DNA of 64,000 nt from Deltaproteobacteria bacterium RIFCSPLOWO2_12_FULL_60_19 (GCA_001798595.1 MGSS01000014.1:20910-84909); one strand, 5' to 3'. Counted from the first letter of the stretch, positions 16,793 to 45,679 are shown. Notes: generated by a model from the letters alone, not told the origin. A program made the numbers and translations.

Positions 16793-18247
16793 ATGGCGAT
16801 TAAAGATCTCAGAAGCTTCATTTCCGTTTTAGAAGAGCACGGCGAGCTGGTCCGCGTAAAGGCGGAGGTCGATTGGAACCTCGAACTGGGAGGCATCCTC
16901 AGGCGGATCTACGATAAGGGCGCGCCGGCCGCGCTGTTCGAAAAGATCAAGGACTACCCCAAAGGGATGCGCATCCTCGGCGCTCCGATGGGACGGGGCC
17001 ACACCACCATCTATTCGCGCCATGCCCTCGCTCTGGGTCTCAAGCCCGACGCGGGCTACGGCGAGATCTTGAAGACCTACGTCGAGCGGAAGAACAAACC
17101 GTTCAAGCCCGTCGTGGTGAAAAATGCTCCCTGCAAGGAAGTGATTCTCAAAGGGGACGACGTGGACCTCTTGAAATTTCCAGTTCCCTTTATCCACGAG
17201 GGCGACGGCGGGCGCTTTATCGGAACGTGGCACGCGGTGGTTTCGCGCGACCCGGAGGAAGGGTGGACCAACTGGGGGATGTACCGGATGATGGTTCACG
17301 ACCGCAACACGACCGGCATGCTCATCCCGCCCATCCAGCACATGGGGCGCATGTACCAAAAAGCCGAGGCGATGGGCAAACCGCTCGAAGCCGCCGTGGC
17401 GCTCGGGACCGATCCAGCCACCACCATCGTCAGTTGCGCCATGCTGCCCGACCGGATCGAGGAGCAGGACGTGGCCGGAGGCCTCCTGCGCGAGCCTATG
17501 GAGCTGGTCAAGTGCGAGACGGTGGATCTCTCAGTTCCGGCCAACGCGGAGATCATTCTAGAAGGCTATATTCCTCCGGGAGAGAGACGGACGGAAGGAC
17601 CGTTCGGCGAGTACATGGGGTTCGAGGCGGGCAGGTCCGGGCCGCGGCCGGTTTTTCACGTAACCTGCATCACGCATCGCAAAGATCCGATCCTGGCCGT
17701 CTCCAACATGGGGATGCCGATCCACGAGAGCCAGGTGGTGATGGGCATCACCATGGCGGGCGACATCTACGATGAGCTGACCAAACAGGGGCTACCCATC
17801 AGAATGGCCTACATGCCGCCGTACGGTGTCACGCACATGATCGCCGTCTCGACGCAGACGCCCTATATGAATTTCGCCAAGCGAGTGGCCCACTCGATCT
17901 GGGGGACCAAGGCGGGAAGCATGGTCTACTACGTCATCGTCTGCGACGCGGATGTGGATGTGACCGACTTCAACCAGGTAATCCACTCCATCGCCACCAA
18001 ATGCCACCCGTCGCGCGGCATCTACCAAGTGCCCCACGCGCCGAGTTACGCCTATATGGTTCCCTTCTTGAACGACAAGGAACGTCCGATCGGCGACGGC
18101 GCCTACGCGCTGCTCGATTGCACCTGGCCCAAGGACTGGCCCAAGGAGACGATCCCGGTCAAGTCTTCCTTCGATGTCCTCTGGCCCAAGGAAATTCAGG
18201 ATAAGGTCATCAGAAGGTGGGAGGACTACGGCTTTGCAAAGGACTGA
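16793..18247 (+). CDS. UbiD-family (prFMN-dependent) decarboxylase/carboxylase, paralog U1 (subfamily A)
   Basis: MAIKDLRSFISVLEEHGELVRV..., GGRFIGTWH, NWGMYR, QHMG and TEGPFGEYMGF. I placed the start at 16793, after GGGAGGA. Confidence 0.9.
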   Translation: MAIKDLRSFISVLEEHGELVRVKAEVDWNLELGGILRRIYDKGAPAALFEKIKDYPKGMRILGAPMGRGHTTIYSRHALALGLKPDAGYGEILKTYVERKNKPFKPVVVKNAPCKEVILKGDDVDLLKFPVPFIHEGDGGRFIGTWHAVVSRDPEEGWTNWGMYRMMVHDRNTTGMLIPPIQHMGRMYQKAEAMGKPLEAAVALGTDPATTIVSCAMLPDRIEEQDVAGGLLREPMELVKCETVDLSVPANAEIILEGYIPPGERRTEGPFGEYMGFEAGRSGPRPVFHVTCITHRKDPILAVSNMGMPIHESQVVMGITMAGDIYDELTKQGLPIRMAYMPPYGVTHMIAVSTQTPYMNFAKRVAHSIWGTKAGSMVYYVIVCDADVDVTDFNQVIHSIATKCHPSRGIYQVPHAPSYAYMVPFLNDKERPIGDGAYALLDCTWPKDWPKETIPVKSSFDVLWPKEIQDKVIRRWEDYGFAKD

Positions 18248-18250
18248 GGC

Positions 18251-19129
18251 ATGAAGCCCGCTCAATTTGATTATTTCGCTCCCGCGAAAATTCGGGACGC
18301 CCTCGCGCTGCTTGAGGAGTACAAGGACGAGGCCAAGATTTTGGCCGGCGGCCAAAGCCTCATGCCTCTGCTCAACATGCGTCTCGCCCGCCCGCGGGCG
18401 CTGATCGATATCAACCGCATCACGAGCCATTCCTACATCCGCCGGGAGAACAGCGTCCTCGCCATCGGCGCTCTAACCCGCCACCGGGAGATCGAGACAT
18501 CGCCGCTCGTGCGGCAGAAGTGCCCAGTGCTAGCCGAGGCGGTCCGGTGGATCGGCTATCCGCAGATTCGCAATCGGGGCACGATGGGAGGCTCCCTGGC
18601 GCATGCCCATCCCGCGGCCGAGCTGCCGGCGGTGGTGACCGCGCTTAGAGGAGAACTCAGGGTCATCGGCCCGGCGGGGGAGCGGACGGTAAAAGCGGAA
18701 GAGTTCTTTCAAGGATTTTTCACCGTGGCGCTTGAGCCGAACGAGATCTTGAGCGAAGTGCGTCTAGCGCTCTGGCCGAAGAACGCGGGATTCTCGTTTA
18801 AAGAAATCAACCGGCGCCACGGCGACTTCGCCATCGCCGGCGTCGCCGCTCTGATCTCGCTCAACGAGAGGAAAGAGTGCGCCGAGAGCAGCATCGTTCT
18901 GGCGGGAGTGAATCCGACGCCGCTGCGCGCGAAGCGATCGGAGAAGTTGCTCAAGGGGCGGAAAATCACTCGGGACATCATTGAAACAGCGGCGGCGCTG
19001 GCCGCGGAGGACTCCGATCCGCCGTCGGACGTGCACGGCTCGGCCGACTACCGGCGCGAGCTGGTCAAGGTCATCGTCCGAAGGGCGCTGGAAGAGGCGG
19101 GAGCAAGAGCAATGCAAAATGAAAAGTGA
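18251..19129 (+). CDS. Molybdenum hydroxylase (xanthine dehydrogenase/CoxM family) FAD-binding medium subunit
   Basis: 292 aa with the ILAGGQSLMPLLNMRL and RNRGTMGGSLAHA motifs. The last 5 codons (MQNEK) and the stop lie inside a family-1 repeat. Confidence 0.85.
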   Translation: MKPAQFDYFAPAKIRDALALLEEYKDEAKILAGGQSLMPLLNMRLARPRALIDINRITSHSYIRRENSVLAIGALTRHREIETSPLVRQKCPVLAEAVRWIGYPQIRNRGTMGGSLAHAHPAAELPAVVTALRGELRVIGPAGERTVKAEEFFQGFFTVALEPNEILSEVRLALWPKNAGFSFKEINRRHGDFAIAGVAALISLNERKECAESSIVLAGVNPTPLRAKRSEKLLKGRKITRDIIETAAALAAEDSDPPSDVHGSADYRRELVKVIVRRALEEAGARAMQNEK

Positions 19130-19189
19130 AAAATGCAAAATGAAGACTAAAAATTTACGCTTTGCCTTTTGCAATCTGCAATTTGCATT
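19110..19189. repeat. AT-rich word-repeat palindrome, family 1, copy c
   Basis: caatgcaaaatgaaaagtgaaaaatgcaaaatgaag...cgctttgccttttgcaatctgcaatttgcattg. Confidence 0.85.
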
Positions 19190-19207
19190 GGTGGGGGGTT
19201 TGTAGCC

Positions 19208-19702
19208 ATGGCGCGCATGTATCCGATCAAGCTGACGGTGAATGGGATCGAGTATGAGAGAACCGTCGAGGCGCGCAAGCTTTTAGCGGATTTTCTGCGC
19301 GACGACTTGGAGCTTACCGGCACGCACGTCGGGTGCGAGCATGGAGCCTGCGGCGCCTGCACGGTCATCATGAACGGCCAAACGGCGCAGTCTTGTCTCA
19401 TGCTCGCCGTTCAAGCGGACGGCGCGGAGATTCTGACCGTCGAGGGGCTGGCCGACGGCGCGGGGCTCCATCCGATCCAGCAGGCTTTTCTCGACTGCCA
19501 CGCCCTCCAGTGCGGCTTCTGCACGCCCGGCGTCCTGCTCTCCGCCCACGCGCTGTTGCAGGAAAACTCCCATCCGACGGAAGAGGAGATTCGTCAAGGG
19601 ATATCCGGCCATATCTGCCGCTGCACCGGGTATGTGAATATCGTGAAGGCGATCCAGGCCGCGGCGGAGAAGACGGCGGTGGCGCCGCTCAATGCAAAAT
19701 GA
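19208..19702 (+). CDS. Molybdenum hydroxylase small subunit, two [2Fe-2S] clusters (CoxS type)
   Basis: GCEHGACGACTV, CGFCTPG and CRCTGY motifs. I chose the start at ATG 19208 (MARMYPIKLTVNG). The last 3 codons and the stop lie inside a family-1 repeat. Confidence 0.9.
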   Translation: MARMYPIKLTVNGIEYERTVEARKLLADFLRDDLELTGTHVGCEHGACGACTVIMNGQTAQSCLMLAVQADGAEILTVEGLADGAGLHPIQQAFLDCHALQCGFCTPGVLLSAHALLQENSHPTEEEIRQGISGHICRCTGYVNIVKAIQAAAEKTAVAPLNAK

Positions 19703-19795
19703 AAAATGAAAGGTTCAAAGTGAAAAGTGAAGACGCCATGCATCCGAGGAGCTTGAGAATTTTGCAATTTGCACTTTGCAATTTTCATTTTGCAA
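19690..19795. repeat. AT-rich word-repeat palindrome, family 1, copy d
   Basis: caatgcaaaatgaaaaatgaaaggttcaaagtgaaaagtgaag ... gagaattttgcaatttgcactttgcaattttcattttgcaat. Confidence 0.85.
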
Positions 19796-20847
19796 TACGG
19801 ATTACTTTGTGGGCGCTTCTCCTGATTCCCGCGCCGGCACGGGCTCAACAGAACGCCGAGGAGCTGCTGTCCCAGCTTAACAAACTGCCTGCGGCCGAGC
19901 GCCGGCAGAAGCTGCTCGACGGCGCGAAGCAGGATCGGGAGGTCTCGGTCTACGCGAGCTTCACCGAAGCCAACACTCTCGGCAACGCCTTCCGCAAGCA
20001 GCATCCTTCCGTAGCGGTAAATATCCGGCGGCTCGGCGGGGGACGCTTGCTGGACATCACGGTCACGGAGTTCCGGGCGGGAAAGCATCTGGTGGACGTT
20101 TTTATCGGCGGCTCGACCTCGGGCCGGCCGCTCGTCGAGGCGGGAGTGATCGGCCGCTATGTTTCGCCCGAGCGGGCGTTCTTGGATGCGCATCTCAAAG
20201 ACGAAAAGGGCTACTGGACCGCCTTCTTTTCGCGCCACCTGGTTTTTGCCTACAACACGACGCTGGTCCCGGCGGCCAGGCTGCCGAAAACCTACTTCGA
20301 TCTCCTCGATCCCTACTGGAAAGGAAAGCTCGCCATCGACGATCATCCGGGCAACTGGCTGGCCGGCATGGTGAAGGCGTACGGCAAAGAAAAGGCCACG
20401 GAGCTGCTGCAAGGGGTGGTTAGACAGGCGCCCAAGATCATTCGCGGCCGCACGCTCAAGGGGCAACTGCTCGCCGCCGGCGAATTTCACGCAGCCGTGG
20501 ACCAGACCGAGGAGAGCGTGATCGAGATCAAGAAGAAGGGCGCGCCGGTGGACTATGCCCTGCTGGAAAATACGCCGGTGCTGACCAATCCGGTGCTGCT
20601 GGCGAAGAATGCGCCGCATCCGTATGCGGCGGCGCTGTTCGTGGATTACCTCCTTTCGAGCGCGGGCCAGCAGGCGGTCGTGGATATCGACTACGTGCCG
20701 ACGCGCCAGGGGTTCAAGCCCAAAAACCAGGAGCTGGCCGCGCGGGCCGCCAAGGCCAAACTGGTCTTCTTCGACCTCGACTGGTTCGGCGAGCGGCAGA
20801 AGGAGATCAACGATTTGATCAAGGAGAATCTCAGGCCGCATCGGTAA
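19738..20847 (+). CDS. Exported ABC solute-binding protein, family-1 / Fe(III)-polyamine type (S1)
   Basis: The mature part, AQQNAEELLSQLNKLPAAERRQKLLDGAKQDREVSVYAS, is a paralog of four other SBPs in the window. The start is uncertain. ATG 19738 would make part of the signal peptide (LRILQFALCNFHFAI) repeat-encoded. Confidence 0.75.
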   Translation: MHPRSLRILQFALCNFHFAIRITLWALLLIPAPARAQQNAEELLSQLNKLPAAERRQKLLDGAKQDREVSVYASFTEANTLGNAFRKQHPSVAVNIRRLGGGRLLDITVTEFRAGKHLVDVFIGGSTSGRPLVEAGVIGRYVSPERAFLDAHLKDEKGYWTAFFSRHLVFAYNTTLVPAARLPKTYFDLLDPYWKGKLAIDDHPGNWLAGMVKAYGKEKATELLQGVVRQAPKIIRGRTLKGQLLAAGEFHAAVDQTEESVIEIKKKGAPVDYALLENTPVLTNPVLLAKNAPHPYAAALFVDYLLSSAGQQAVVDIDYVPTRQGFKPKNQELAARAAKAKLVFFDLDWFGERQKEINDLIKENLRPHR

Positions 20848-20915
20848 GTCATTTGTTCAAGTTGTTCAAAAGGTTCAAGTGGTTCAAAAACACTGTGAAC
20901 TCGAACAGTGAAAGG
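20848..20915. repeat. Word-repeat element (GTTCAA words) with a short palindrome
   Basis: gtcatttgttcaagttgttcaaaaggttcaagtggttcaaaaacactgtgaactcgaacagtg. Confidence 0.6.
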
Positions 20916-20923
20916 ATCACGCC

Positions 20924-22006
20924 ATGCCGCGACTAAAAAGCTGTGTCCTGCTGACCTTAGCTCTGTCCTTTTTCTCCCAGGGACTGAGCTTCGCCCAGCA
21001 AGGCGTCGAGAATCTGTTGGAAAGCCTGAACAAGCTTGCTCCCGCGGAGCGGCAGCAGAGGCTTGTCGAAGGATCGAAAAAAGAAAAAGAGCTGATGGTC
21101 TACACGGTCTTGACCCTCACCGACTTCGACCATCTCCAGCGAGCGTTCAACGCCAGGTATCCCCACATCCAGGTGAAGCGCTTGCGCCAGGGCGGGGGCA
21201 AGCTGTTCGACTTCCTTATGAACGAGTACCGGGCGGGAAAAAATCTCGTCGATGTCCTGACCGCCGGCGAGACCATCACCTATCCGCTCATCAAAGAGGG
21301 ACTGATCGGCCGCTACGCTTCCCCGGAACGGCAAGCCTTCGCTCCGGAGTATAAAGACAAGGACGGTTACTGGACCGCATACTTCGCTTACCGCTGGGTC
21401 TTCGGCTACAACGTCGACCTGATTCCCGCCAACAGGATTCCCAAGAGCTACTTCGATCTCCTCGATCCCTACTGGAAAGGCAAGCTCGCCATCGACACCG
21501 ATCCTCATTCGTGGATGATCGGCATCATCAAGGCCTACGGCAAGGAAAAGGCCGTCGATTACTTCAGGAGGCTGGCCGGCCAGGGATTGCGCGCGCACAA
21601 AGGACGAACGCTCCGTGCGCAGCTCATGGCGGCGGGCGAGTTTCCGGCTTCCGTCGAGCAGGAGGTGAGCAAGATAGTTCAGATGAAGCGTCAGGGCGCG
21701 CCCTTGGACTACCGCTATCTTGAGAACACTCCCTCGACGTTGACGCCCGTGGCGCTTGCGCGGCTCGCTTCGCATCCCCACGCGGCGGCGCTCTACATCG
21801 ACTTCGTACTCTCCGAAGAAGGACAGAAGATACTGGCCGAGCTGGCTTATGTGCCCGCCCGCGGCGGTCTGCGCCCGAAGGATACGGAACTGGCCGAGCG
21901 CGACCGGCAAGCGAAGATCGTGGCGATGGACACGGAATCGACGTTTGCCTGGCGGAAAGAAGTCCTCGCCCTGGCGGATCAGATATTCACACCGGGGCGA
22001 AGGTGA
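20924..22006 (+). CDS. Exported ABC solute-binding protein, family-1 / Fe(III)-polyamine type (S2)
   Basis: 360 aa. The signal peptide is MPRLKSCVLLTLALSFFSQGLSFA. The LNKLAPAERQQRLVEGSKKEKE helix is shared with S1 and S3-S5. Confidence 0.85.
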   Translation: MPRLKSCVLLTLALSFFSQGLSFAQQGVENLLESLNKLAPAERQQRLVEGSKKEKELMVYTVLTLTDFDHLQRAFNARYPHIQVKRLRQGGGKLFDFLMNEYRAGKNLVDVLTAGETITYPLIKEGLIGRYASPERQAFAPEYKDKDGYWTAYFAYRWVFGYNVDLIPANRIPKSYFDLLDPYWKGKLAIDTDPHSWMIGIIKAYGKEKAVDYFRRLAGQGLRAHKGRTLRAQLMAAGEFPASVEQEVSKIVQMKRQGAPLDYRYLENTPSTLTPVALARLASHPHAAALYIDFVLSEEGQKILAELAYVPARGGLRPKDTELAERDRQAKIVAMDTESTFAWRKEVLALADQIFTPGRR

Positions 22007-22078
22007 GGAATAACGTGAGAGCGTAAGGCGTGAGGCGTTAGGCGATCCCCTCACCCCTCACGCCTGACCCCTTACGGC
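22003..22078. repeat. GC-rich word-repeat hairpin (GTGAGGCG words)
   Basis: gtgaggaataacgtgagagcgtaaggcgtgaggcgttaggcgatcccctcacccctcacgcctgaccccttacggc. Confidence 0.75.
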
Positions 22079-22092
22079 TTATAGGAGAAATA

Positions 22093-24537
22093 ATGGCTGT
22101 CGCAGAAACTGACGTTCGCGCTCATGCCCGGTGGTTCGGCACGCCGGTTAAGCGCAAGGAAGATCCGAGGCTGCTGACCGGCCGGGGGCATTACGTGGCT
22201 GATATCAGTCTGCCGCGCACGGTTCACTGCGCCTTGCTCCGCAGCCCTCACGCCCACGCGCGAATTCACCGCATCGACGTGAGCAAGGCCCAAGCGCTCC
22301 CCGGCGTCGTCCTGACGCTCACGGGAGAAGAGCTGGCTCAAGCGACCAACCCGCTCCCTTCGGTTTTCAGTCTCGGCAACAAGCCGGCGCCCTTTCTCGA
22401 CTATCCGATGGCGGTTAAGAAAGTCCGCTACGCCGGCGAGCCGGTGGCGGCGGTCGTGGCGACGGATCGTTACTTGGCCGAAGACGCGCTCGAATTGATC
22501 GACGTCGAGTATGAGCCTCTCCCGGCGGTGACCGATGTCGAGGAGGCGACTCGCCCCGGCGCGCCGCTGCTGTTCGAAGAGATGGGCACGAACGTCACCT
22601 GGCATGGAACTTTTCCCTATGGCGAGGTGGAGCGCGCCTTTCGAGAGGCCGACCGGATCGTCAAGCGACGGCTCTACTTTCACCGCTACAGCTCGACGCC
22701 GATGGAGACCTTCGGCGGGATCGCGAGCTACGACCCGCCGAGTCAGTTACTCACGATCTATTCCAACCTCCAGATTCCCGCCATGCTGCATCCTTTCATG
22801 AGCTACAGCTTGAAGATTCCCGGCAACCGGTTGCGGCAGGTGACCGGCGACATCGGCGGGGGATTCGGCATCAAGTGCGCCGTCTATGCCAACATGATCA
22901 TTCTGGGCGTGCTCTCGATGCGTCTCGGCCGGCCGGTCAAGTGGATCGAGGACCGGCACGAGCACCTGTTGGGCAGCGCGCACGGCACGGAGCGCGCCGC
23001 TTACGTGGAAGCCGCGGTCAAGAACGACGGCACGTTCCTCGGCGTGAAGATCAAGAGCTACGACAACGACGGCGGATACATGAGATTTCCCGAGCCGGTC
23101 GGCGTGATCCTCTGGTCCCACGTGGTCCAGGGCTGCTACCGATTCCGCGACATCCTGATGGACTGTTACGCGGTGGTGACGAACAAATGCCCGGTGACGC
23201 CCAATCGCGGCTACGGCCGCATGCAGCACCAGTTCTTTCTCGAAAGAATGATGAACATCGTCGCGCGCGAGCTGGGGCAGGATCCGGTGGAGATCCGGCT
23301 CAAGAATTTCATCCGGCCCGGCGAGTTTCCCTACGAGGCGACCAACGGGAGCGTTTACGACAGCGGCGATTATGCCGAGGCGCTCAAGCAGGCGCTCGAG
23401 CGGATCGGCGGCTATGAGCATTGGCGGGCGGAGCAGAAGAAGGCGAGAGCGGAGGGGCGCTACATCGGGATCGGCGTCGCGACGATCATGGATCCGGGCG
23501 CGTCGAATTTGGGCGAGATGAGCATGATCGACCCCGACATCCGCTCCTCAACGGCGGGCGAGGCGGCGACGATCAAGATCGACGCCACGGGCGCGGTGAC
23601 GGTGGCGCTCGGTTCGGTGCCGCAGGGGCAGGGGCATGAAACCACGAGCGCGCAGATCGTCGCCGACGAGTTGGGAGTGAGCGTCGATGAGGTCGTGGTC
23701 TTGACCGGCTTCGACACGGCGACGCATCCCTACTGCGGCAGCTCGGGAACCTATGCCAGCCGCTACGCCGGCACGGCCACCGGCGCGCTCAAAGGGGCGG
23801 CGCAGAAACTGAGAGAGAGAATATTCAAGATCGCCGCTCAATTCTTGGAAGCAAGACAGGAGGATTTGGAGCTGGCGGAAGGAAAAGTATTTGTCCGCGG
23901 GGCGCCGCAGCGGGGGATGGCCTTGCGCGATATCGCCGGGATCGCGCTCTACAATCCGGCGGCGCTGCCCGAAGGGGTGGAGCCGGGCCTGGAGGCGACT
24001 TGCAATTACAACTTTCCCCTGGCGAACCAGATGGACGCAAAGTTCCGCGCCAACTACGCCTCGACCTACGCCAACGCGGCGCACGCCGTCGCCATCGAGG
24101 TCGATGTGGAAACGGGAGAGGTCAAGATCCTCAAGTACGCCGTGGTCCACGACGCGGGGAATTTAATCAATCCGAGCATCGCCGACGGCCAGATCCACGG
24201 CGGCGTGGCCCACAGCCTCGGCGCCGCGCTTTACGAAGAGTTCGCTTACGACGAAAACGGCCAGCTCCTGACCTCCAGCTTCATGGACTACCTTTGCCCC
24301 AAGGCGACCGACGTGCCGCCGATGTCGGTCGGCCATCTGTGCAGCCCCTCGCCGTTCACCCCGTACGGCGTCAAAGGGATGGGCGAAGGGAGCGGGCCGA
24401 TTCCTGCGCTGCTCGGCAACGCGATCGAAGATGCTCTGGCGCCGTTGGGCGTCGAAGTGGACGGGTCGCACTTCAGCCCGCAGAACGTGATGGCGATGAT
24501 TTGGAAGGCTAAAGGAAAGCGTGTCGACACGCAGTAG
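22093..24537 (+). CDS. Molybdenum hydroxylase large (molybdopterin-binding) subunit, xanthine dehydrogenase/aldehyde oxidase/CoxL family
   Basis: 814 aa with a typical N-terminus, GTPVKRKEDPRLLTGRGHYVADI...LRSPHAHARI. No AYxCSFR motif of true CO dehydrogenases is seen. Confidence 0.9.
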   Translation: MAVAETDVRAHARWFGTPVKRKEDPRLLTGRGHYVADISLPRTVHCALLRSPHAHARIHRIDVSKAQALPGVVLTLTGEELAQATNPLPSVFSLGNKPAPFLDYPMAVKKVRYAGEPVAAVVATDRYLAEDALELIDVEYEPLPAVTDVEEATRPGAPLLFEEMGTNVTWHGTFPYGEVERAFREADRIVKRRLYFHRYSSTPMETFGGIASYDPPSQLLTIYSNLQIPAMLHPFMSYSLKIPGNRLRQVTGDIGGGFGIKCAVYANMIILGVLSMRLGRPVKWIEDRHEHLLGSAHGTERAAYVEAAVKNDGTFLGVKIKSYDNDGGYMRFPEPVGVILWSHVVQGCYRFRDILMDCYAVVTNKCPVTPNRGYGRMQHQFFLERMMNIVARELGQDPVEIRLKNFIRPGEFPYEATNGSVYDSGDYAEALKQALERIGGYEHWRAEQKKARAEGRYIGIGVATIMDPGASNLGEMSMIDPDIRSSTAGEAATIKIDATGAVTVALGSVPQGQGHETTSAQIVADELGVSVDEVVVLTGFDTATHPYCGSSGTYASRYAGTATGALKGAAQKLRERIFKIAAQFLEARQEDLELAEGKVFVRGAPQRGMALRDIAGIALYNPAALPEGVEPGLEATCNYNFPLANQMDAKFRANYASTYANAAHAVAIEVDVETGEVKILKYAVVHDAGNLINPSIADGQIHGGVAHSLGAALYEEFAYDENGQLLTSSFMDYLCPKATDVPPMSVGHLCSPSPFTPYGVKGMGEGSGPIPALLGNAIEDALAPLGVEVDGSHFSPQNVMAMIWKAKGKRVDTQ

Positions 24538-25675: not shown

Positions 25676-25688
25676 AGGAGGGCCGATC

Positions 25689-36672: not shown

Positions 36673-36694
36673 AGAAGAGGTCAGTAGAATTCAG

Positions 36695-37669: not shown

Positions 37670-37678
37670 ACGACGAAG

Positions 37679-39271
37679 ATGGCCTATTACCGCGATCTAA
37701 GAGAGTTCATCTCGGCGCTGGAGCAGGCCGGAAAGCTCGTGCGAATCCCCCGGCCGGTGGTCAAAGAGAGCGAGCTGTTCCCGCTGTTTCGACTTCAGTT
37801 CCGCGGTCTCTCCGAGGAGGAGCGCAAGGTTTTTCTCTTCGAGCGCGTCGTCGATGTCAAAGGGAAAACTTACAGCGGCAGCGTGGCTGCCGGGATTTAC
37901 GGCGCGTCCCGTGAAGTCTGCGCTCTCGGCGTGATGTGCCGGGAGGGAGAGATACTGGAACGGTGGCATGAGGCTTTGGCCTGCCCGCTCGCTCCCGAAA
38001 CGGTCTCCTCGGGGGTCGTTCAGGAAGAGATCCACGAGGGAGAGGAGCTTTCCGTCCTCGGGCTGGACGAGTTTCCCGCGCCCGTGGAAGAGCCGGGCTA
38101 CAGCGGCTCGCTTCGCGCCACCACTCAGTTCGTTACGCGGGACCCGGAAACCGGAGTCCGCAACGTGGGGCTGTACTCCGGCCATTTTCGCTCGTCCCAT
38201 CGCCTCCTCTTGGGCATCGCCCCAACGCATCACGCCTACCTTCACTGGCTCAAATACGAGAAAAGGAAAGAGCCGATGCCCGCCGCCATCGTCATCGGCG
38301 CCACGCCCAACATCGTCCAGGTCTCGGCCGCCAACATCCCTTACGGCGTCGATGAGTTTTCGGTCGCCGGGGGACTTGCGCGCGAGCCCGTAAGGCTCGT
38401 CAAGTGCAGAACCGTGGACCTCGAGGTTCCCGCCGATGCGGAGATTTGCATCGAAGGCCTGATCTCCACCGATCGTTTTGAGCCGCACAGCTCCTTCGGC
38501 GAATATCCCGGCTACATGTATCAGGGAAGCGGCGACGTGCGGCCGGTGATGGAGGTTACCTGCATCACCCATCGGCGGAGTCCCATCTTCACTCCGTTCC
38601 TCGTCGGCCTCCCGCCAAGCGACACCCACAAGCTCATGCAGATCGCCGCCGAGGCGCTCTATTACAGCTTTCTCAAGTACGGCTCGAATAATCCGTATAT
38701 CGTTGACGTCGCCTTTCCCGAGGCGGGCGGGAGCTGGAACTATTGCGTGGTGTCGATCCGCAAGAGCCATCCCACGCAGCCCTGGCAGGTTTTGAATGCG
38801 ATTGCGGGTTTCGACCCGGTCATAGGGAAGATCGCTATCGTGGTGGACGAGGACGTGAACCCGCATGACGCGGATGCCGTCAACTGGGCGCTGAGCTTTT
38901 CGATGCAGCCGCACTCGGACGCGCGCATTATCACCGACCGCGCGCCGGCCCTCGATCCTTCGGCTTATGCTCCGGGATCCCCCCACGAAGAGCGGAGCTT
39001 TCCTTCTCCGCACGGCTCGTCGGCGATTTTGATCGATGCAACCCGCAAATGGCCCTATCCTCCGGTGGGGTTGCCGCAGAAGGAATACATGGAAAACGCG
39101 CTCCGCTTGTGGAAAGAGCTTGGATTCCCGCCGCTCAAACTGAAGGAGCCGTGGCACGGCTATTCCTTGGGCAATTGGACGAAGGAAGACGAAGAGAATG
39201 CGGCGCTGATTCTCAGGGGCGATTATCACAAGATCGGCGAGAAGATGCGACGGAGACAGACAAAGGGCTGA
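37679..39271 (+). CDS. UbiD-family protein, paralog U5 (divergent subfamily C)
   Basis: 530 aa. It has the UbiD N-terminus MAYYRDLREFISALEQAGKLVRI, but the catalytic-motif positions differ: NVGLYS instead of N.G.YR, and HSSFGEYPGY. Confidence 0.85.
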   Translation: MAYYRDLREFISALEQAGKLVRIPRPVVKESELFPLFRLQFRGLSEEERKVFLFERVVDVKGKTYSGSVAAGIYGASREVCALGVMCREGEILERWHEALACPLAPETVSSGVVQEEIHEGEELSVLGLDEFPAPVEEPGYSGSLRATTQFVTRDPETGVRNVGLYSGHFRSSHRLLLGIAPTHHAYLHWLKYEKRKEPMPAAIVIGATPNIVQVSAANIPYGVDEFSVAGGLAREPVRLVKCRTVDLEVPADAEICIEGLISTDRFEPHSSFGEYPGYMYQGSGDVRPVMEVTCITHRRSPIFTPFLVGLPPSDTHKLMQIAAEALYYSFLKYGSNNPYIVDVAFPEAGGSWNYCVVSIRKSHPTQPWQVLNAIAGFDPVIGKIAIVVDEDVNPHDADAVNWALSFSMQPHSDARIITDRAPALDPSAYAPGSPHEERSFPSPHGSSAILIDATRKWPYPPVGLPQKEYMENALRLWKELGFPPLKLKEPWHGYSLGNWTKEDEENAALILRGDYHKIGEKMRRRQTKG

Positions 39272-39305: not shown

Positions 39306-40760
39306 ATGGCCTATCCAGATTTGCGCGCTTGGATAGCAGAGCTTGAGAGGCACGGCGAGCTGGCGCGCGTGCGCCGCGAGGTGGATTGGAATCTCGAGAT
39401 TGGGGCGATCACGCGCAGGATCTGTGAGACCCAGGGGCCGGCGCCGCTGTTTGAGACGGTCAAAGGTTATCCAGGCTGCCGTATCCTCGGCGCTCCTGTT
39501 GCCATGAGTAAAAAACACCGCTATGGCCGCTTGGCGTTGAGCCTGGGGCTTCCCGTGGATTCCTCCTTCAGGGAGATTTTTGAATTTTACCTCGCAAGAA
39601 GGAAAAACCGCATTGCTCCGATAGAGGTCTCCGCGGGTAGCTGCCAGGAAAACGTTATCCTGGGCGCCGACGACGTCGACCTTTTCAAACTCCCCGCTCC
39701 TTATATTCATGACGGGGATGGTGGGCGCTATCTGGGGACGTGGCATGTGGTCATCTCTCGAAACCTGCGGGGCGACTGGACCAACTACGGCATGTATCGG
39801 CTCATGATCCATGATCGTCGCCATCTGGGAATCAATCTGGGCCTCCTTCAGCACCTCTACTTGCAATACCAAGAATACGCGGAGCAGAACCGCCCCATGG
39901 AGTTCGCCGCGGCCATCGGCGTCGAGCCTGTAACGGCATTGATCGGGGCGACTTCCGTCGGAGAAGGGGTGAACGAAGCAGAAGTTATCGGCGGCGTGCG
40001 GGGCGAGCCTTTGGAAGTGGTGCGCTGTAAGACCGTTGACCTGTGCGTGCCGGCGACGGCGGAAATCGTGATCGAGGGAACTATCGATCCCAGAGAGCGT
40101 AAGGACGAGGGGCCTTTCGGCGAGTACGTGGGCTATCGCGCCGGCGGCAAGAATCCCCGGCCCGTCCTGAAGGTCCAGGCTATTACCCATCGGAACAACC
40201 CCATCCTTCCGATGTGCGCGCTCGGCACGCCGATCGACGACGTTCACACTCTTCACTCTGTCCTTGAAGCGGCAGAGGTTTTTGAGGAGCTTCGTGACTC
40301 CAAAGGTTTCCCGGTCGAGTGCGTCTATCCCGTGCCGGAGGCCGCCGGCCACCTTTGGGCGGTCTCTACCGATGTCCCCGACAAGACTTATCCCCGCCGT
40401 CTGGCGATGGCGCTCTGGGCGATGAAGGGAGGGCGCTACGCGGATTATCTTGTGCTGGTCAATAAAGACGTGGATGTGACCGATCTAAGAGAGCTTCTAT
40501 GGGCGATGGCCACGCGGGCCCACCCGGTGCGCGATCTCTGGCCGGTGGAGCATCTCTACAGCACGCTGCTTGTCCCTTGGCTCACGCCCGAGGAGCGAAA
40601 GACGGGAGACGGGGCCCACGTTCTCATCGATGCCACCTGGCCGGCGGACTGGCCGAAAGATTGGATCCCGGAGGTTTCCTCTTTCAAGACGATGTGGCCC
40701 GAAGAAGTTCAGCGGAAGGTGCTTCAAAACTGGCGGGAAGATGGCCTTGGAAACCCTTGA
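39306..40760 (+). CDS. UbiD-family decarboxylase/carboxylase, paralog U6 (subfamily A)
   Basis: 484 aa with GGRYLGTWH, NYGMYR, QHLY and DEGPFGEYVGY. Confidence 0.9.
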   Translation: MAYPDLRAWIAELERHGELARVRREVDWNLEIGAITRRICETQGPAPLFETVKGYPGCRILGAPVAMSKKHRYGRLALSLGLPVDSSFREIFEFYLARRKNRIAPIEVSAGSCQENVILGADDVDLFKLPAPYIHDGDGGRYLGTWHVVISRNLRGDWTNYGMYRLMIHDRRHLGINLGLLQHLYLQYQEYAEQNRPMEFAAAIGVEPVTALIGATSVGEGVNEAEVIGGVRGEPLEVVRCKTVDLCVPATAEIVIEGTIDPRERKDEGPFGEYVGYRAGGKNPRPVLKVQAITHRNNPILPMCALGTPIDDVHTLHSVLEAAEVFEELRDSKGFPVECVYPVPEAAGHLWAVSTDVPDKTYPRRLAMALWAMKGGRYADYLVLVNKDVDVTDLRELLWAMATRAHPVRDLWPVEHLYSTLLVPWLTPEERKTGDGAHVLIDATWPADWPKDWIPEVSSFKTMWPEEVQRKVLQNWREDGLGNP

Positions 40761-40762
40761 GA

Positions 40763-40894
40763 CAATGCAAAATGAAAATTGCAAAATGCAAAAGTCGAAA
40801 TAACAGACAGAGATCGGAGACAACCCCCGGGCGGCTGTTTTTATCGCGGTCTTCCTCGATTTTTCATTTTTCAATTTGCATTTTGCATTTTGCA
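40763..40894. repeat. AT-rich word-repeat palindrome, family 1, copy e (large GC-rich loop)
   Basis: caatgcaaaatgaaaattgcaaaatgcaaaagtcgaaa ... ttttcatttttcaatttgcattttgcattttgca. It starts 2 nt after the U6 stop and ends at the GTG start of the next gene. Confidence 0.85.
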
Positions 40895-41869
40895 GTGAGA
40901 GCTGTTTTGCCGCTTTTGTTGATCTTGCTCTGTTTTTCCTCTGCTCTCGCTCAGGAGAAGAAGCTCAGAAAGATGACGGTGGGTTATGTCCTCGCATCCT
41001 CCGCCTATGCGTCGCTCTTCGTCGCCAAGGAGGCGCGGATTCTTGAGAAGCATGGGCTCGATGCGAGCCTCATCTTCCTCGGCACGGGTTCGCTCGCCGT
41101 GTCCGCGCTGCTCGCCGGAGATGTGAATGTGCTGCGCGGCACTCCCGCTGCCGTGGTGCAGGCCCAAGCCCAAGGCGCCCCTCTCGTCATCCTGGGCTCG
41201 GAGTATGATGTCCTGACTTTCAAGCTCATCGTTCGGCCTGAGATTCGTGAAGCGAAGGATCTCAAGGGGAGGAAACTGGGCATCGCCCGTTTCGGCGACA
41301 CCGGGGACTACGCGACGAGGCGCGCGCTTCAATATCTGGGACTTGATCCTCAGCGGGATGTGACGATTCTTCAGGCGGGCGGGCAGACCGCTCGCCTTGC
41401 CGCGCTTCAGGCCAAAGCGCTTGACGGCACGGTGGTCAATCCTCCCAACGATCTGATTATGAAAGAGGTTGGTTTTCACGAGTTGGTGGACATCAGCAGG
41501 CTGGCGCTGCCCTATCTGGGCAACACCTACGCGGTCACGCAGGCCACGCTTAAGTCCCAACCTGATGCGGTGGAGGGTTTTGCCCGTGCGATGGTGGAGG
41601 GGATTGCTCATTTCAAGACTCATAAGGAAGAGACGCTTAAGGTTTTGCGGAAGTATCTGCGGGTTACCGACCAGAAAATGCTCGAAGCGACGTACGAATT
41701 TATTAAACAGTTTACGGTGGACGTTCCGATCCCTAGAGCCGACGGACTCGCTGTGATGCTGGATATCATGGCGCGGGAGACGGGAACAAAGCCAAAAGTA
41801 GACCCTGCCTCGTTTATCGACGCCACGTTGGTAAAAAAAATCATCAGCAAGAGGGAAATCGCGCCATGA
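40895..41869 (+). CDS. Exported NMT1/THI5-like solute-binding protein (N2)
   Basis: The GTG start gives VRAVLPLLLILLCFSSALA as the signal peptide. The protein is colinear with N1 (GRKLGIARFGDTGDYATRRALQYLGLDPQRDV). Confidence 0.8.
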   Translation: MRAVLPLLLILLCFSSALAQEKKLRKMTVGYVLASSAYASLFVAKEARILEKHGLDASLIFLGTGSLAVSALLAGDVNVLRGTPAAVVQAQAQGAPLVILGSEYDVLTFKLIVRPEIREAKDLKGRKLGIARFGDTGDYATRRALQYLGLDPQRDVTILQAGGQTARLAALQAKALDGTVVNPPNDLIMKEVGFHELVDISRLALPYLGNTYAVTQATLKSQPDAVEGFARAMVEGIAHFKTHKEETLKVLRKYLRVTDQKMLEATYEFIKQFTVDVPIPRADGLAVMLDIMARETGTKPKVDPASFIDATLVKKIISKREIAP

Positions 41870-42846
41870 TAATCGATGTTTTCTGTCACATCTATCCGAA
41901 GAATTTTCTGGCGGCGTTGGCGCAAATGAAAAGCTCCCTGCCTCACGTCCGCTTCTCCGCCGAGATCAAGGAAGGCTGGGAAGATTTTGTCGACCTGGAC
42001 CTCCGGCTCCGTCACATGGATCAGTACGGCGTGGATGTTCAGGTGTTGAGCCTGGCGACGCCGGCGTTCGAAGCGGAAAACCCGCAGGAGCAGATCCAGC
42101 TCGCCAAAATCGCCAATGACGGCATCGCCGAAATCGTCGCCAAAAACCCCAAACGCTTCATCGGCGCCGCCACGCTGCCGATGCTCACGATCGATACGGC
42201 GCTGGCGGAGCTGGATCGATCGGTCCGAGACTTGGGATTGAGAGGCGTCCAGCTGTTTTCCAACATCGGCGGAAAGCCGCTGGACACGCCGGAGCTGGTT
42301 CCGTTCTATGAGAAAGTCGCGCGCTACGATGTGCCGATCATCCTCCATCCGACTTCCTGGAACTATTACGAATGGAGCAGGGAGTACGGGATGTGGAACA
42401 TTTTCGGCTGGCCGTTCGACACGAGCCTGGCGATGGGAAGGATCGTGTTCGGCGGTATTTTAGAAAAATTTCCGACTCTCAAGATCGTCACCCACCACCT
42501 CGGCGCGATGGCGCCGTACTTCGTCGAGAGGATTCGCGGCTTCTACGACCAGGGCGAGCAGTATCCCAACTTATCGACCCGCGCGAAATTCACCAGGGCG
42601 CCGCTCGATTATTTCAGACTCTTCTACGCCGACACGGCGGTCTACGGCTGGAAGCCGGCTTTGGATTGCGGCCTGGCTTTTTTCGGCGCGGATCACGTTC
42701 TCTTTGCCACGGATTATCCGTTCGGGCCTGACGCGGGAGAGAGGTACGTGCGCAACACGATTCAGTCGATCAACGAGCTGGAGCTTTCCCGGGAGGACAA
42801 AGAGAAGATCTTCTCCGGCAACGCCAGGCGTCTGTTCCGGATTTAA
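41866..42846 (+). CDS. Amidohydrolase-2 family protein (ACMSD / LigW / gamma-resorcylate decarboxylase-type non-oxidative decarboxylase fold)
   Basis: 326 aa with MIIDVFCHIYP at the start, VQLFSNIGG, ILHPTS and FATDYPFG at the end. The start overlaps the N2 stop (ATGA). Confidence 0.75.
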   Translation: MIIDVFCHIYPKNFLAALAQMKSSLPHVRFSAEIKEGWEDFVDLDLRLRHMDQYGVDVQVLSLATPAFEAENPQEQIQLAKIANDGIAEIVAKNPKRFIGAATLPMLTIDTALAELDRSVRDLGLRGVQLFSNIGGKPLDTPELVPFYEKVARYDVPIILHPTSWNYYEWSREYGMWNIFGWPFDTSLAMGRIVFGGILEKFPTLKIVTHHLGAMAPYFVERIRGFYDQGEQYPNLSTRAKFTRAPLDYFRLFYADTAVYGWKPALDCGLAFFGADHVLFATDYPFGPDAGERYVRNTIQSINELELSREDKEKIFSGNARRLFRI

Positions 42847-42870
42847 TATTGGAGTTTACCCTTTGACGAT

Positions 42871-42969
42871 GAAAGCCGCCACCCGCTCTCCGAGCCCGCG
42901 CAATGGGTAGCTGCTTAATCCCACCGGGGGTATCGGATGCGCGGGCTCTCCGACCGGGCGGCGGCTTTC
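42871..42969. repeat. 99-nt structured palindromic element, family 3, copy b
   Basis: gaaagccgccacccgctctccgagcccgcgcaatgggtagctgcttaatcccaccgggggtatcggatgcgcgggctctccgaccgggcggcggctttc. Confidence 0.8.
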
Positions 42970-43036
42970 ACTTCGAAGACTCACGCCCCGAGGAATCGCT
43001 TGCGGGAAAGATCGCTGAAGAAAGAAAGGAAAAGCT

Positions 43037-44689
43037 ATGAGCTACCACAAAGACCTGCGCGACTATCTGGATCATCTGGACCGCGCGGGCAAGCTGCGGC
43101 GCGTCGGCCGGCGGATCGACAAGGATACGGAGCTTCATCCTCTGGTGCGCTGGCAGTTTCGCGGACTGGACGAAGACGAGAGAACCGGTTTCCTGTTCGA
43201 CAATCTTACTGGCCTCAAAGGGCTCAACTACCCCTCGCGGGTCGCCACCGCCATCATGGCGCCATCGCGCGAGGTTTACGCGATGGGGATGATGTGCTCT
43301 CCCGCGGAGATCTCCCAAAAGTGGAGCGCGGCCTATGCGCGCCCCATCGAGCCGAGATTGGTGACGACGGGGCCGGTCAAAGAAGAGATTCACCTGGGCA
43401 AGAATCTGCTGGAGCACGGCGGGCTGGATGAGTTTGCGATCCCGATGGCGACCAACGGCTGGGAGTGTCTCCCGCGGTTGACGGCGGTCTCGTGGCATTC
43501 CAAAGACCCGGACACCGGCGTCGTCAACGTCGGGACTTACAACGGGCTTCAGCTCGGTCCGGACCGGACCAATCTCCGCTGTGGTCCCGGAACGCATCTG
43601 GTGGTCCACTGGCAGAAATGCAGGAAGCGCGGCGTTCCGCTCCAGGCCGCGGCGGTGATCGGCGCGGTGCCCGCGATCTCGATGGTCAGCGTGGCCAAAG
43701 TTCCCTACAGCGTAAGCGAGCTGGCCGTGGCGGGAGGCATCGCCGGAGAGCCGATCGACGTCGTGCGCTGCGAGACGATCGATCTTGTCGTCCCGGCGAC
43801 CGCTGAGATCGTGATCGAGGGCGAGGTGCCCACGGATTACATGGAGCCGGACGGCGCGAGCGGCGAGCACACCGGCTACACCATCGTCGGCCGGCGGGTC
43901 TTCGCTTTCAAAGTGAAGGCGATCACGCACCGAAAAAATCCCATCTGGCACGACTTCATCAGCCAGATGCCGCCGTCGGAGTCGAGCACGATTCGCGGTC
44001 TCGCGGGCGAGGGGAGGATGACGAGTTTCTTGCGCGACGGCTGCGGGATCAATCAGGTGAAAGACGTGGCGTTTCATCACTGTGCTGGCGCCTGGAGAAT
44101 CTGCGTGATTCGTTTTCAGGACATCGCCGGCGTGAGAACGCACGAGAGCGTCGTTTGGCAGGCGCTTTTGGCCTCTCAATCGATCGCCACCGATTGGCCC
44201 AAGATGGTGATCGCGGTGGACGACGATATCGACCCGACCGATCTGGAGTCGGTCTTCTGGGCCGTCACGTTCCGCTATCAGCCGCACCGGGACACGAGGA
44301 TCATTCAAGGCCGGGGCGCGAGCCTGGATCAGTCGTCGGGCTCCTATAGCGCGTCGTACGAAGAGAGGCGTTTCCCGACCGGCACGACGTCGCCTCAAGG
44401 CGCTTCGTCGATCCTGATGGATGCGACGAGGAAGTGGGACTACACGCCGGTCTCTCTGCCGAAGAAAGAATACATGGAGAATGCGAAGCGGATCTGGGAG
44501 GAGTTGGGATTTCCCCGGCTCAAGCCGAAAGCGCCCTGGTACGGCTACGACCTCGGTATCTGGGCAGAGGAAGACGAGAGACTGGCGCGGCTGGCCGAGA
44601 AAGGGGAGTTCGATAAAGTGGCGGAGGCTTTGATGAGCAAGGGCAGGAAATTGACGCCAACAGACAAAGTCTCGGGAGGAATGGAGTAA
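43037..44689 (+). CDS. UbiD-family protein, paralog U7 (divergent subfamily C)
   Basis: 550 aa with MSYHKDLRDYLDHLDRAGKLRRV. It is colinear with U5. The motif positions read NVGTYN and DGASGEHTGY. Confidence 0.85.
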   Translation: MSYHKDLRDYLDHLDRAGKLRRVGRRIDKDTELHPLVRWQFRGLDEDERTGFLFDNLTGLKGLNYPSRVATAIMAPSREVYAMGMMCSPAEISQKWSAAYARPIEPRLVTTGPVKEEIHLGKNLLEHGGLDEFAIPMATNGWECLPRLTAVSWHSKDPDTGVVNVGTYNGLQLGPDRTNLRCGPGTHLVVHWQKCRKRGVPLQAAAVIGAVPAISMVSVAKVPYSVSELAVAGGIAGEPIDVVRCETIDLVVPATAEIVIEGEVPTDYMEPDGASGEHTGYTIVGRRVFAFKVKAITHRKNPIWHDFISQMPPSESSTIRGLAGEGRMTSFLRDGCGINQVKDVAFHHCAGAWRICVIRFQDIAGVRTHESVVWQALLASQSIATDWPKMVIAVDDDIDPTDLESVFWAVTFRYQPHRDTRIIQGRGASLDQSSGSYSASYEERRFPTGTTSPQGASSILMDATRKWDYTPVSLPKKEYMENAKRIWEELGFPRLKPKAPWYGYDLGIWAEEDERLARLAEKGEFDKVAEALMSKGRKLTPTDKVSGGME

Positions 44690-44692
44690 GCC

Positions 44693-45679
44693 ATGAGCCG
44701 CTATTCCGCAATACTCGCGCGCGGAGTTTTTCTGGCCGCGCTCCTCGCGCTGCCCGGGATAGGGAAAAGCGCAGACGAGCGGCTCGAACATGTGGTTATC
44801 GGCGTGCCGGCCAAGGTCGTCCAGTTCGCGCCGTTTTACCTGGGCGCAAAGAAAGGGATCTACGCCGCCGAGGGACTGAAGGTCGAGGTCGTCCAAATCC
44901 GCACCGCCGCAACCCTCGCCGCGCTGCTTTCGGGCGACATGGACTACTCGGGCGCAATCGGCTCCGCCGTCCGCTCAATCGGCGCCGGCGCGCCTTTAAA
45001 GGTCGTTCTATCGATTCGCGACAAGTCGAATTTTTATCTCATTGCGCGCCCCGAGATTCGCAGCTTCGCCGATCTCAAGGGAAAAAAGATCGGCGTGCAG
45101 CAGATCGGGAGCGGGCAGTCGATCAGCACGCGCATGCTGGTCGCAAAGAAAGGGCTCAATCCCGACCGGGACGTGATTTTTGTCTCGGGCAATCCGACGC
45201 CGATCGCCTTCCAGGGAGTGAAGACGGGGGTGATCGATGCGGGAACGGTCTCCTCGCCGTATCAATTTCTCGCGCGCCGCAGTGGGCTGAACGTTTTGTC
45301 TTTTTTGGGAGACGACGTGCCCGAGGCGCCGTCGGGCACCGGGATTGCGACGACGGAGAAAACAATCCGGAGCCGGCCGGATCAGGTGCGGAAGATGATC
45401 CGGGCGACGCTCAAGGCGCTGCGCTATTTCAAGGAGAATCCCGCGGAGGTCCAGTCCATTCTAGTGCAGGAATTCGGCGTTCAGGCCGATCTGGTGAAAG
45501 ACCTTTACGACGAGGCCATCGAGATGTTCGTTTTTCAAGGCAGTCTCGACCCGGCGAAAATCCAGGCCCAGATCAACATGGCCAAAGAGGGCGGGCAAAA
45601 ACTGCCGCCCGACTTCAGCCCGGAGAAGTGCATCGACGCGAGTTTTCTGAGAGAGATTCATAAAGAGATGGGGCTATAG
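44693..45679 (+). CDS. Exported NMT1/THI5-like solute-binding protein (N3)
   Basis: 328 aa. The signal peptide is MSRYSAILARGVFLAALLALPGIGKSA. GKKIGVQQIGSGQSISTRMLVAKKGLNPDRDV parallels N1 and N2. Confidence 0.8.
   Translation: MSRYSAILARGVFLAALLALPGIGKSADERLEHVVIGVPAKVVQFAPFYLGAKKGIYAAEGLKVEVVQIRTAATLAALLSGDMDYSGAIGSAVRSIGAGAPLKVVLSIRDKSNFYLIARPEIRSFADLKGKKIGVQQIGSGQSISTRMLVAKKGLNPDRDVIFVSGNPTPIAFQGVKTGVIDAGTVSSPYQFLARRSGLNVLSFLGDDVPEAPSGTGIATTEKTIRSRPDQVRKMIRATLKALRYFKENPAEVQSILVQEFGVQADLVKDLYDEAIEMFVFQGSLDPAKIQAQINMAKEGGQKLPPDFSPEKCIDASFLREIHKEMGL

Follow-up and report, generated by a model that had tools for sequence, protein, structure and literature searches.

UbiD-family enzymes are sought as reversible biocatalysts for aromatic C-H (de)carboxylation, and only a handful have been characterised. 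Here we describe a locus of the uncultured Deltaproteobacteria bacterium RIFCSPLOWO2_12_FULL_60_19 in which seven UbiD paralogues, termed U1 to U7, are interleaved with genes for exported solute-binding proteins (SBPs). The DNA analysed is a stretch of 64,000 nt (MGSS01000014.1, positions 20910-84909), referred to as the window, and coordinates are counted from its first nucleotide. It is part of a 104.7-kb environmental scaffold, and the same locus has been assembled from several samples.

The nearest solved structures are HudA (PA0254), PhdA (7PDA) and HmfF, which decarboxylate pyrrole-2-carboxylate, phenazine-1-carboxylate and furan-2,5-dicarboxylate, respectively; all three substrates are heteroaromatic acids. 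HudA is encoded by a single gene and not by an array. The phd operon has its own UbiX (PhdB) and maturase (PhdC), and neither kind of gene was seen at the locus described here. The hmf system also pairs a UbiD enzyme with a molybdenum (Mo) hydroxylase, the furoyl-CoA dehydrogenase. Phenylphosphate carboxylase, PpcABCD, has two different UbiD paralogues side by side. With respect to the binding proteins, the Bug/TctC families of Bordetella and Cupriavidus comprise many orphan exported binding proteins that are scattered among metabolic genes and outnumber the translocators. Bug/TctC proteins differ in that they serve tripartite tricarboxylate transporters and are of other protein families, whereas those of the window are of the ABC type, either NMT1/SsuA-like or SBP_bac_6/FbpA-like. 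To our knowledge, Bug proteins have not been described as systematically paired with UbiD enzymes.

An earlier note on this DNA held that characterised loci carry one or two UbiD genes. This is incomplete, as five UbiD-family genes are listed for the N47/NaphS2 naphthalene carboxylase cluster (PMC6849830). The naphthalene/phenanthrene clusters of N47, NaphS2 and Desulfatiglans TRIP_1 resemble the present locus in having several divergent UbiDs, one of them PpcA-like, and in their proximity to genes for CoA ligases and aryl-CoA reduction (PMC6849830). They contain ParA/MRP ATPases, a Ppc-gamma-like protein, HAD hydrolases and small conserved proteins but lack binding proteins, whereas the window has none of these accessory genes and instead encodes nine exported binding proteins. 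The same note regarded the layout as an undescribed system, and no description of UbiD/binding-protein arrays was found in the open literature. We regard the locus as a probable catabolic cluster based on an enzyme family that is already known; what is genuinely under-described is the recurrent pairing of UbiD genes with orphan binding proteins, and a UbiD clade that has lost an active-site arginine (the Arg-less clade). The seven UbiD genes are as follows.

16793-18247, plus strand: U1, subfamily A, canonical active site, 35% identical to HudA
31073-32527, plus strand: U2, subfamily A, Asp in place of the His191-equivalent metal ligand
32538-34016, plus strand: U3, subfamily B, canonical active site, starts 10 nt after U2
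35194-36672, plus strand: U4, subfamily B, canonical active site, 36% identical to PhdA
37679-39271, plus strand: U5, subfamily C, Arg-less (Ser173 and His277 in Fdc1 numbering), with a C-terminal extension
39306-40760, plus strand: U6, subfamily A, canonical active site, starts 34 nt after U5
43037-44689, plus strand: U7, subfamily C, Arg-less (Asn173 and Asp277)

All seven open reading frames are on the plus strand within 28 kb and are full-length, as the earlier note had proposed. Each has the Rift-related UbiD domain (PF01977, E 1e-43 to 1e-75) and UbiD_C (PF20696). UbiD_N (PF20695) is matched by U1-U6, and the N-terminal domain of U7 falls below the reporting threshold. None of the seven has a signal-peptide-like N-terminus. 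The family model TIGR00148 (cut-off 244.85 bits) is reached by U1-U4 and U6 with 304-364 bits, and U5 (242.3) and U7 (203.3) are just below it. At an assumed 40 paralogues per 5 Mb, simple arithmetic gives about 0.2 UbiD genes expected in 28 kb; seven is far beyond chance.

Three subfamilies that had been recognised by eye are reproduced by pairwise BLASTP identity, with 45-59% within A (U1, U2, U6), 65% within B (U3, U4) and 44% within C (U5, U7), against 28-39% across subfamilies. The sequence motifs proposed for them are found in U1-U4 but do not extend to U6, which has GYPGC for DYPKG and WREDGL at the C-terminus. HudA is the nearest solved structure to subfamily A (E 6e-93, about 35% identity), PhdA to subfamily B (E 1e-72, about 36%) and HmfF to subfamily C (E 2e-51, 32-34%), where the identities were computed on reference sequences rebuilt from printed alignments. 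HudA and the Bacillus megaterium pyrrole-2-carboxylate decarboxylase align over their full length with subfamily A and share the W-x-x-YGF tail and the active-site Arg and Glu; they differ in that U2 has Asp for the His metal ligand. The U2 residue aligned to what we take to be HudA position 318, with the number deduced from the alignment, is not conserved. PhdA has the same canonical active site as U3 and U4. HmfF is without the C-terminal extension of about 90 residues found in subfamily C. U5 and U7 each have an orthologue of 67-72% identity in one Desulfobacterales metagenome-assembled genome (MAG), compared with 44% to each other. These paralogues are therefore old and have been maintained separately.

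The UbiD genes belong to a plus-strand run of 26 genes that spans 11149-45679, with intergenic gaps of -4 to 234 nt, among them gaps of 190 and 134 nt. The order is hydantoinase A, hydantoinase B, fused permease, U1, CoxM, CoxS, two SBP_bac_6 genes and CoxL in the 5' part. These are followed by a Vgb-lyase-like propeller, two Rieske proteins, a second fused permease and two further SBP_bac_6 genes. The 3' part consists of U2, U3, SBP_bac_6, U4, NMT1-SBP, U5, U6, NMT1-SBP, amidohydrolase-2, U7 and NMT1-SBP. The order from 31 kb on is the one given in the earlier note, and the tight spacing also stands: gaps are 2-134 nt, with 10 nt between U2 and U3, 34 nt between U5 and U6, and 234 nt before U2. 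The array as a whole proved larger than that note described. It did include the Mo hydroxylase, the hydantoinase pair and the amidohydrolase-2, but it missed four SBP_bac_6 genes, CoxS, two permeases, the propeller, the two Rieske genes and a minus-strand NMT1 gene. The same-strand gaps of 2-34 nt would imply co-expression. A consensus scan found no terminator-like sites within the intergenic gaps, every match being inside coding sequence; there are 28 such sites versus 19.5 in shuffled sequence (standard deviation 4.5), about two standard deviations above. Scans for consensus sigma-70 promoter-like and sigma-54 sites gave counts at or below chance, all within coding sequence. The G+C content is about 60% throughout the window, and that of the array equals that of its flanks.

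Besides the UbiD genes, the window has nine exported binding proteins, in two ABC classes, and two fused permeases. The transport genes are listed below.

15100-16773, plus strand: fused two-domain ABC permease, FbpB-like (BPD_transp_1 twice), start approximate
19738-20847, plus strand: SBPa, exported SBP_bac_6 protein between Mo-hydroxylase genes, start uncertain as a repeat overlaps its 5' end
20924-22006, plus strand: SBPb, exported SBP_bac_6 protein (Pfam and signal-like N-terminus)
26936-28630, plus strand: second fused ABC permease (BPD_transp_1 in two stretches)
28648-29742 and 29762-30838, plus strand: two exported SBP_bac_6 proteins (Pfam and signal-like N-terminus)
34049-35191, plus strand: SBP1, exported SBP_bac_6 protein, nearest PDB entries iron- and pyridoxal phosphate-binding proteins (E 1e-12)
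36695-37669, plus strand: SBP2, exported NMT1/SsuA-type protein (Pfam and signal-like N-terminus)
40895-41869, plus strand: SBP3, exported NMT1-type protein, proposed start GTG 40895
44693-45679, plus strand: SBP4, exported NMT1-type protein, last gene of the run
48498-49520, minus strand: fifth NMT1-type exported binding protein, outside the run and on the opposite strand

Every binding protein has a signal-peptide-like N-terminus as read by eye, in agreement with the earlier note. It should be pointed out that the signal-like stretch of SBP3 is present only with the GTG start at 40895 and not with the gene callers' ATG at 40973. In the SBP_bac_6 class, seven binding proteins are accompanied by three fused permeases and a single ATPase. 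The ABC ATPase is encoded about 8 kb upstream of the window, and the third fused permease and two more SBP_bac_6 genes are also upstream. The subfamily B enzymes U3 and U4 are close paralogues, yet the binding proteins that follow them are of different classes, SBP_bac_6 and NMT1, respectively.

Active-site residues are numbered as in Fdc1 and were located from the motifs N-x-G-x-Y-R and E-G-P-F-G-E. N168, R173, E277 and E282 are intact in U1-U4 and U6. The network of R173, E277 and E282 together with the metal ligands N168, H191 and E233 is complete in U1, U3, U4 and U6, and U2 has Asp at H191. The corresponding motifs are N-V-G-L-Y-S and H-S-S-F-G-E in U5, and N-V-G-T-Y-N and D-G-A-S-G-E in U7. 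Both proteins retain N168, H191, E233 and E282, lose Arg173 and have an altered Glu277, whereas HmfF has Arg and Glu at these two positions in a HMMER alignment. As the four residues are kept, U5 and U7 are probably still able to bind the cofactor and the metal. Among 88 homologues of subfamily C the double change, always paired, occurs in 12, and these are from bacteria and Thermoplasmatales. It is also found in eight of the closest cluster representatives at 50% identity, and of the more distant representatives all but two keep the Arg. Fdc1 itself loses nearly all activity in the R173A and R173K variants and needs an acidic residue at position 277 as well as at 282 (PMC5818171). Judged from these residues, U5 and U7 belong to a coherent Arg-less clade, which may have altered chemistry or a different kind of substrate, or whose members may be partners of canonical paralogues.

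The synteny search suggested in the earlier note shows that the pairing of UbiD and binding-protein genes is not confined to this locus. A scan with a U5 plus U7 profile, with one genome per species, gave 312 relatives, and the locus counts that follow refer to the best 80 of these 312. All 80 loci are from MAGs, and several MAGs supply three to seven separate loci. The taxa are Desulfobacterales (the closest, with U5 at 72% and U7 at 67%), Binatia, Chloroflexota/Dehalococcoidia, Tectomicrobia and Rokubacteria, as well as soil "delta proteobacteria", Thermoleophilia and a few archaea. Two or more UbiD genes are present in 32 of the loci, and none has more than four in 21 kb; no related locus was seen to be as dense as the window. 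NMT1 or SBP_bac_6 homologues occur in half of the loci (40/80), and in 22 of the 80 one is directly adjacent to a UbiD gene on the same strand. Homologues of CoxL/M (14/80), hydantoinase (4/80) and amidohydrolase-2 (5/80) are less frequent. Within 1 kb of a UbiD gene, binding-protein genes reach a density of 2.2 per 10 kb, versus 0.6-1.1 per 10 kb at 1-10 kb, which is a two- to threefold enrichment (binomial p=3.7e-5). Permease homologues are found at 0.05-0.09 per 10 kb, about 15 times more rarely than binding proteins, and therefore most of the recurring binding proteins are orphan. The UbiD-SBP pattern is general and recurs across phyla above the local background, and similar, as yet unstudied clusters are present in many bacteria of soil and groundwater.

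The region is best looked at as a large catabolic cluster of an uncultured subsurface bacterium for carboxylated aromatic, most likely heteroaromatic, compounds, and on the sequence evidence we put the probability of this at roughly 0.55. The heteroaromatic assignment fits the kinship with HudA, PhdA and HmfF, the presence of a Mo hydroxylase and a lactamase-like pair, and the relation of the amidohydrolase-2 to decarboxylases. The earlier note had proposed an island for uptake and decarboxylation. This reading is plausible: canonical sites in five of the seven UbiDs, their heteroaromatic relatives and the UbiD-SBP adjacency speak for it, but the residues of U5 and U7 and the transport of the NMT1 class do not.

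In the scheme that we propose, the divergent exported binding proteins would each capture a different acid outside the cell. Those of the SBP_bac_6 class would pass the ligand to the fused permeases of the cluster, driven by the single upstream ABC ATPase, and the orphan NMT1 class would rely on a translocator encoded elsewhere. Within the cell, U1-U4 and U6, which are expected to depend on prenylated flavin mononucleotide (prFMN) supplied by a UbiX encoded elsewhere, and the metal-dependent amidohydrolase-2 would strip carboxyl groups from the rings. U5 and U7, with a remodelled acid-base network, might convert substrates of another kind or might instead be partner proteins to the canonical paralogues. 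The three-subunit Mo hydroxylase and an ATP-dependent caprolactamase-like lactamase would then process N-heterocyclic rings. Further degradation of the products could be by a divergent operon with a CoA ligase, CoA-transferases, a BcrBC-like pair and beta-oxidation genes.

Several findings weigh against this interpretation. None of the seven UbiDs reaches an NCBIfam equivalog cut-off, and identity to any characterised UbiD is just 32-36%, so that no substrate is assignable to U1-U7; the authors of the HudA paper likewise remark that where a UbiD enzyme falls in the tree is not always a guide to its specificity. Neither UbiX (PF02441) nor any other prFMN helper was seen among the genes examined, which cover the window together with about 7 kb upstream of it and about 8 kb downstream. 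U5 and U7 are without residues that are required in Fdc1, and "seven decarboxylases" may be too many. For the five binding proteins of the NMT1 class there is no permease or ATPase in the approximately 80 kb examined, and thus the transport half is incomplete in cis. In addition, the binding proteins are remote from any liganded structure, and the genomes concerned are very rich in such proteins, so that the interleaving is possibly in part incidental.

The last point can be extended to a view in which expanded families of orphan binding proteins are scattered among catabolic genes with no specific pairing. The background is already about one binding protein per 10 kb up to 10 kb from a UbiD gene, the modules are not duplicated units, as the different classes that follow U3 and U4 demonstrate, and two binding-protein genes are found even between Mo-hydroxylase subunit genes. 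However, the enrichment within 1 kb of UbiD, the same-strand gaps of 2-34 nt and the housekeeping flank (about 50-72 kb), which has no binding-protein genes, make purely incidental interleaving very unlikely. The enzymes might also work in the carboxylating direction, whereby phenolic, heteroaromatic or unsubstituted aromatics would be activated anoxically and the resulting acids would feed the operon with the CoA ligase, BcrBC-like and beta-oxidation genes. In NCBIfam, subfamily A scores best against the phenylphosphate carboxylase alpha subunit (331-376 bits, with U1 at 376) and subfamily B against the beta subunit (231-278 bits), the divergent operon has a BcrB/BcrC-like pair, a PaaK-like ligase, a thiolase and dehydrogenases, and multi-UbiD clusters are known for naphthalene/phenanthrene carboxylases. 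The Ppc scores are, however, far under the equivalog cut-offs of 565 and 469, respectively, and the window is without genes for Ppc gamma/delta subunits, a ParA/MRP ATPase, a HAD protein or a phenylphosphate synthase. No gene for a BcrA/D-type ATPase subunit was seen in the divergent operon as far as it was read, and exported binding proteins suit charged acids and not hydrocarbons. Carboxylation is quite unlikely.

A third view bears on the number of enzymes, as U2-U3 and U5-U6 may be hetero-oligomers like PpcA/PpcB, with U5 and U7 non-catalytic, regulatory or cofactor-handling. The short gaps within the two pairs (10 and 34 nt) are consistent with this, as are the joint replacement of Arg173 and Glu277, seen in U5/U7, in the 12 homologues mentioned above and in the closest representatives at 50% identity, the near inactivity of the Fdc1 R173A and R173K variants together with the need for an acid at 277, and the finding that an Arg-less member adjoins a canonical one in three other settings (loci L009, L061/L062 and L074). 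U7 itself and the Arg-less homologues of four loci (L007, L018, L021, L083) have no adjacent UbiD, though, and the Arg-less clade is conserved from bacteria to Thermoplasmatales. The retention of the Mn/K and prFMN-site residues N168, H191 and E233 and of the acid E282 is more consistent with a working site of altered chemistry. Fewer than seven enzymes is an unlikely arrangement, and it is not exclusive of the catabolic-cluster reading, with which it is compatible.

The seven divergent paralogues of the locus make up a compact panel, with identities of 32-36% to characterised enzymes. Most of the UbiDs have a neighbouring binding protein, whose ligand could reveal the substrate of the enzyme, and a natural clade without the supposedly essential Arg173 is a test of current mechanistic models. 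The locus also has a possible ecological meaning: removal of carboxyl groups from carboxyl-rich aromatic matter may be a major trait, so far overlooked, of abundant uncultured lineages in soil and the subsurface. A broader and more speculative proposal, which we consider possible though doubtful, is that UbiD plus orphan-SBP arrays represent a widespread, undescribed scavenging and decarboxylating strategy, with the Arg-less clade as a functionally new prFMN class. If this were true, uncultured bacteria of soil and groundwater, among them Binatia, Chloroflexota, Desulfobacterota and Tectomicrobia, would decarboxylate (hetero)aromatic acids of natural organic matter, and the U5/U7 clade would have a different reaction chemistry or be a dedicated partner subunit.

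A fusion of UbiD and binding protein was considered and rejected. In one assembly of the locus (L001, 7532-9991, equivalent to window 35194-37669) U4 and SBP2 are called as one product of 819 amino acids. The junction in L001 is identical to that of the window, other assemblies keep U4 and SBP2 as two genes, and compared with L002 there are 16 additional nt in L001 at some point from the U4 start to about 36558. An indel or an assembly artefact elsewhere in U4 is the probable cause of the fused call. UbiD representatives of 600-826 amino acids have no binding-protein domain by Pfam. Four HmfF-like proteins of 610-826 amino acids (P0093, P0142, P0111, P0114) have long C-terminal regions, with a second UbiD_C in three and nothing else matched.

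The remaining genes of the run and the operon divergent from it are as follows.

1476-10994, minus strand: divergent operon with CoA-transferases, short-chain dehydrogenases/reductases (SDRs), acyl-CoA and 3-hydroxyacyl-CoA dehydrogenases and a BcrB/BcrC-like pair
11149-13281, plus strand: hydantoinase A-type, CapA-like (Hydant_A_N, Hydantoinase_A, Hydant_A_C), CapA 618 bits and below the cut-off of 1000, first gene of the run
13283-15049, plus strand: hydantoinase B-type, CapB-like (Hydantoinase_B, E 3e-137), CapB 348 bits and below the cut-off
18251-19129, plus strand: CoxM-like FAD subunit of the Mo hydroxylase (FAD_binding_5 and CO_deh_flav_C)
19205-19702, plus strand: CoxS-like [2Fe-2S] subunit of the Mo hydroxylase (Fer2 and Fer2_2, Cys motifs visible)
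22093-24537, plus strand: CoxL-like large subunit of the Mo hydroxylase (Ald_Xan_dh_C, MoCoBD_1, MoCoBD_2)
24581-25675, plus strand: exported Vgb-lyase-like beta-propeller (Vgb_lyase, E 2.5e-54), signal-like N-terminus
25689-26339 and 26336-26851, plus strand: two small Rieske proteins with RR-containing, Tat-like N-termini
41866-42846, plus strand: amidohydrolase-2 of the ACMSD/LigW/gamma-resorcylate decarboxylase branch

The Mo hydroxylase, of the xanthine-oxidase family, is complete, since CoxL-, CoxM- and CoxS-like genes are all present. No NCBIfam equivalog cut-off was reached by it, and two exported SBP_bac_6 genes split the CoxM and CoxS genes from the CoxL gene (18251-24537). The amidohydrolase-2 (PF04909) had been put forward in the earlier note as a decarboxylase, and this agrees with its PDB matches, which are ACMSD, LigW, gamma-resorcylate and uracil-5-carboxylate decarboxylases (E 1e-38 to 1e-25); hydratase and hydrolase members score worse among the named top matches. 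The top match is 3ij6, an uncharacterised metal-dependent hydrolase. The propeller and Rieske genes (24581-26851) resemble a periplasmic or membrane redox module.

The divergent operon runs on past the window with a PaaK-like CoA ligase and a thiolase. Its BcrB/BcrC-like pair (6470-9142, minus strand) scores 295 and 313 bits, under the equivalog cut-offs. Downstream of the array are toxin-antitoxin genes, then xerC-hslVU and arginine and lysine biosynthesis genes. The toxin-antitoxin-type pairs are at 46674-47392 and 53913-54606 and are of the nucleotidyltransferase plus HEPN and the RHH plus PIN kinds. A mobile island was considered and discarded, as the "integrase" at 54664 is directly upstream of hslV-hslU, followed by arginine biosynthesis genes, and the G+C content is that of the flanks. 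This gene is best read as a XerC-type housekeeping recombinase.

Two copies of a 95-nt palindromic repeat are present in the array.

30883-30977: copy 1, in the 234-nt gap before U2
42873-42967: copy 2, before U7

The copies are 92% identical and have a compensatory change in the inner stem, and the predicted RNA fold is -68 kcal/mol (z -6.7). The palindrome was considered as a riboswitch or attenuator for U2 and U7 and rejected; Rfam gave no match, and the sequence is not specific to UbiD genes. A metagenome scan located it on 11 JGI contigs (L091-L101), one of which overlaps the window. The other ten share only about 100-150 nt around the palindrome with the window, and a UbiD gene is within a few kb in two of the ten. 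It is read as a dispersed repeat of the lineage, similar to repetitive extragenic palindromic (REP) sequences or miniature inverted-repeat transposable elements (MITEs).

Other repeats are also found. A/T-rich elements consisting of heptamers (TGCAAAA/TGAAAAA) and forming inverted repeats are at 2399-2529, 4185-4273, 19096-19187, 19690-19803 and 40749-40897, and they occupy intergenic gaps of both operons. The start codons of SBPa and SBP3 are uncertain because the elements at 19690-19803 and 40749-40897 overlap their 5' ends. The element at 40755-40900 folds at z -3.1, and that at 19090-19190 folds no better than shuffled sequence. About 13 tandem 9-nt units (AACTCAACC and variants) are at 10083-10199, between minus-strand SDR and CoA-transferase genes. 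A 161-nt intergenic repeat is present at 5447-5607 and 7804-7964 (91% identical), with a 53-nt partial third copy at 58636-58688. Two pairs of direct repeats of 132-155 nt that are 90-92% identical (45762-45916/47823-47977 and 47663-47794/48470-48601) are both in a gene-poor stretch just downstream of the array.

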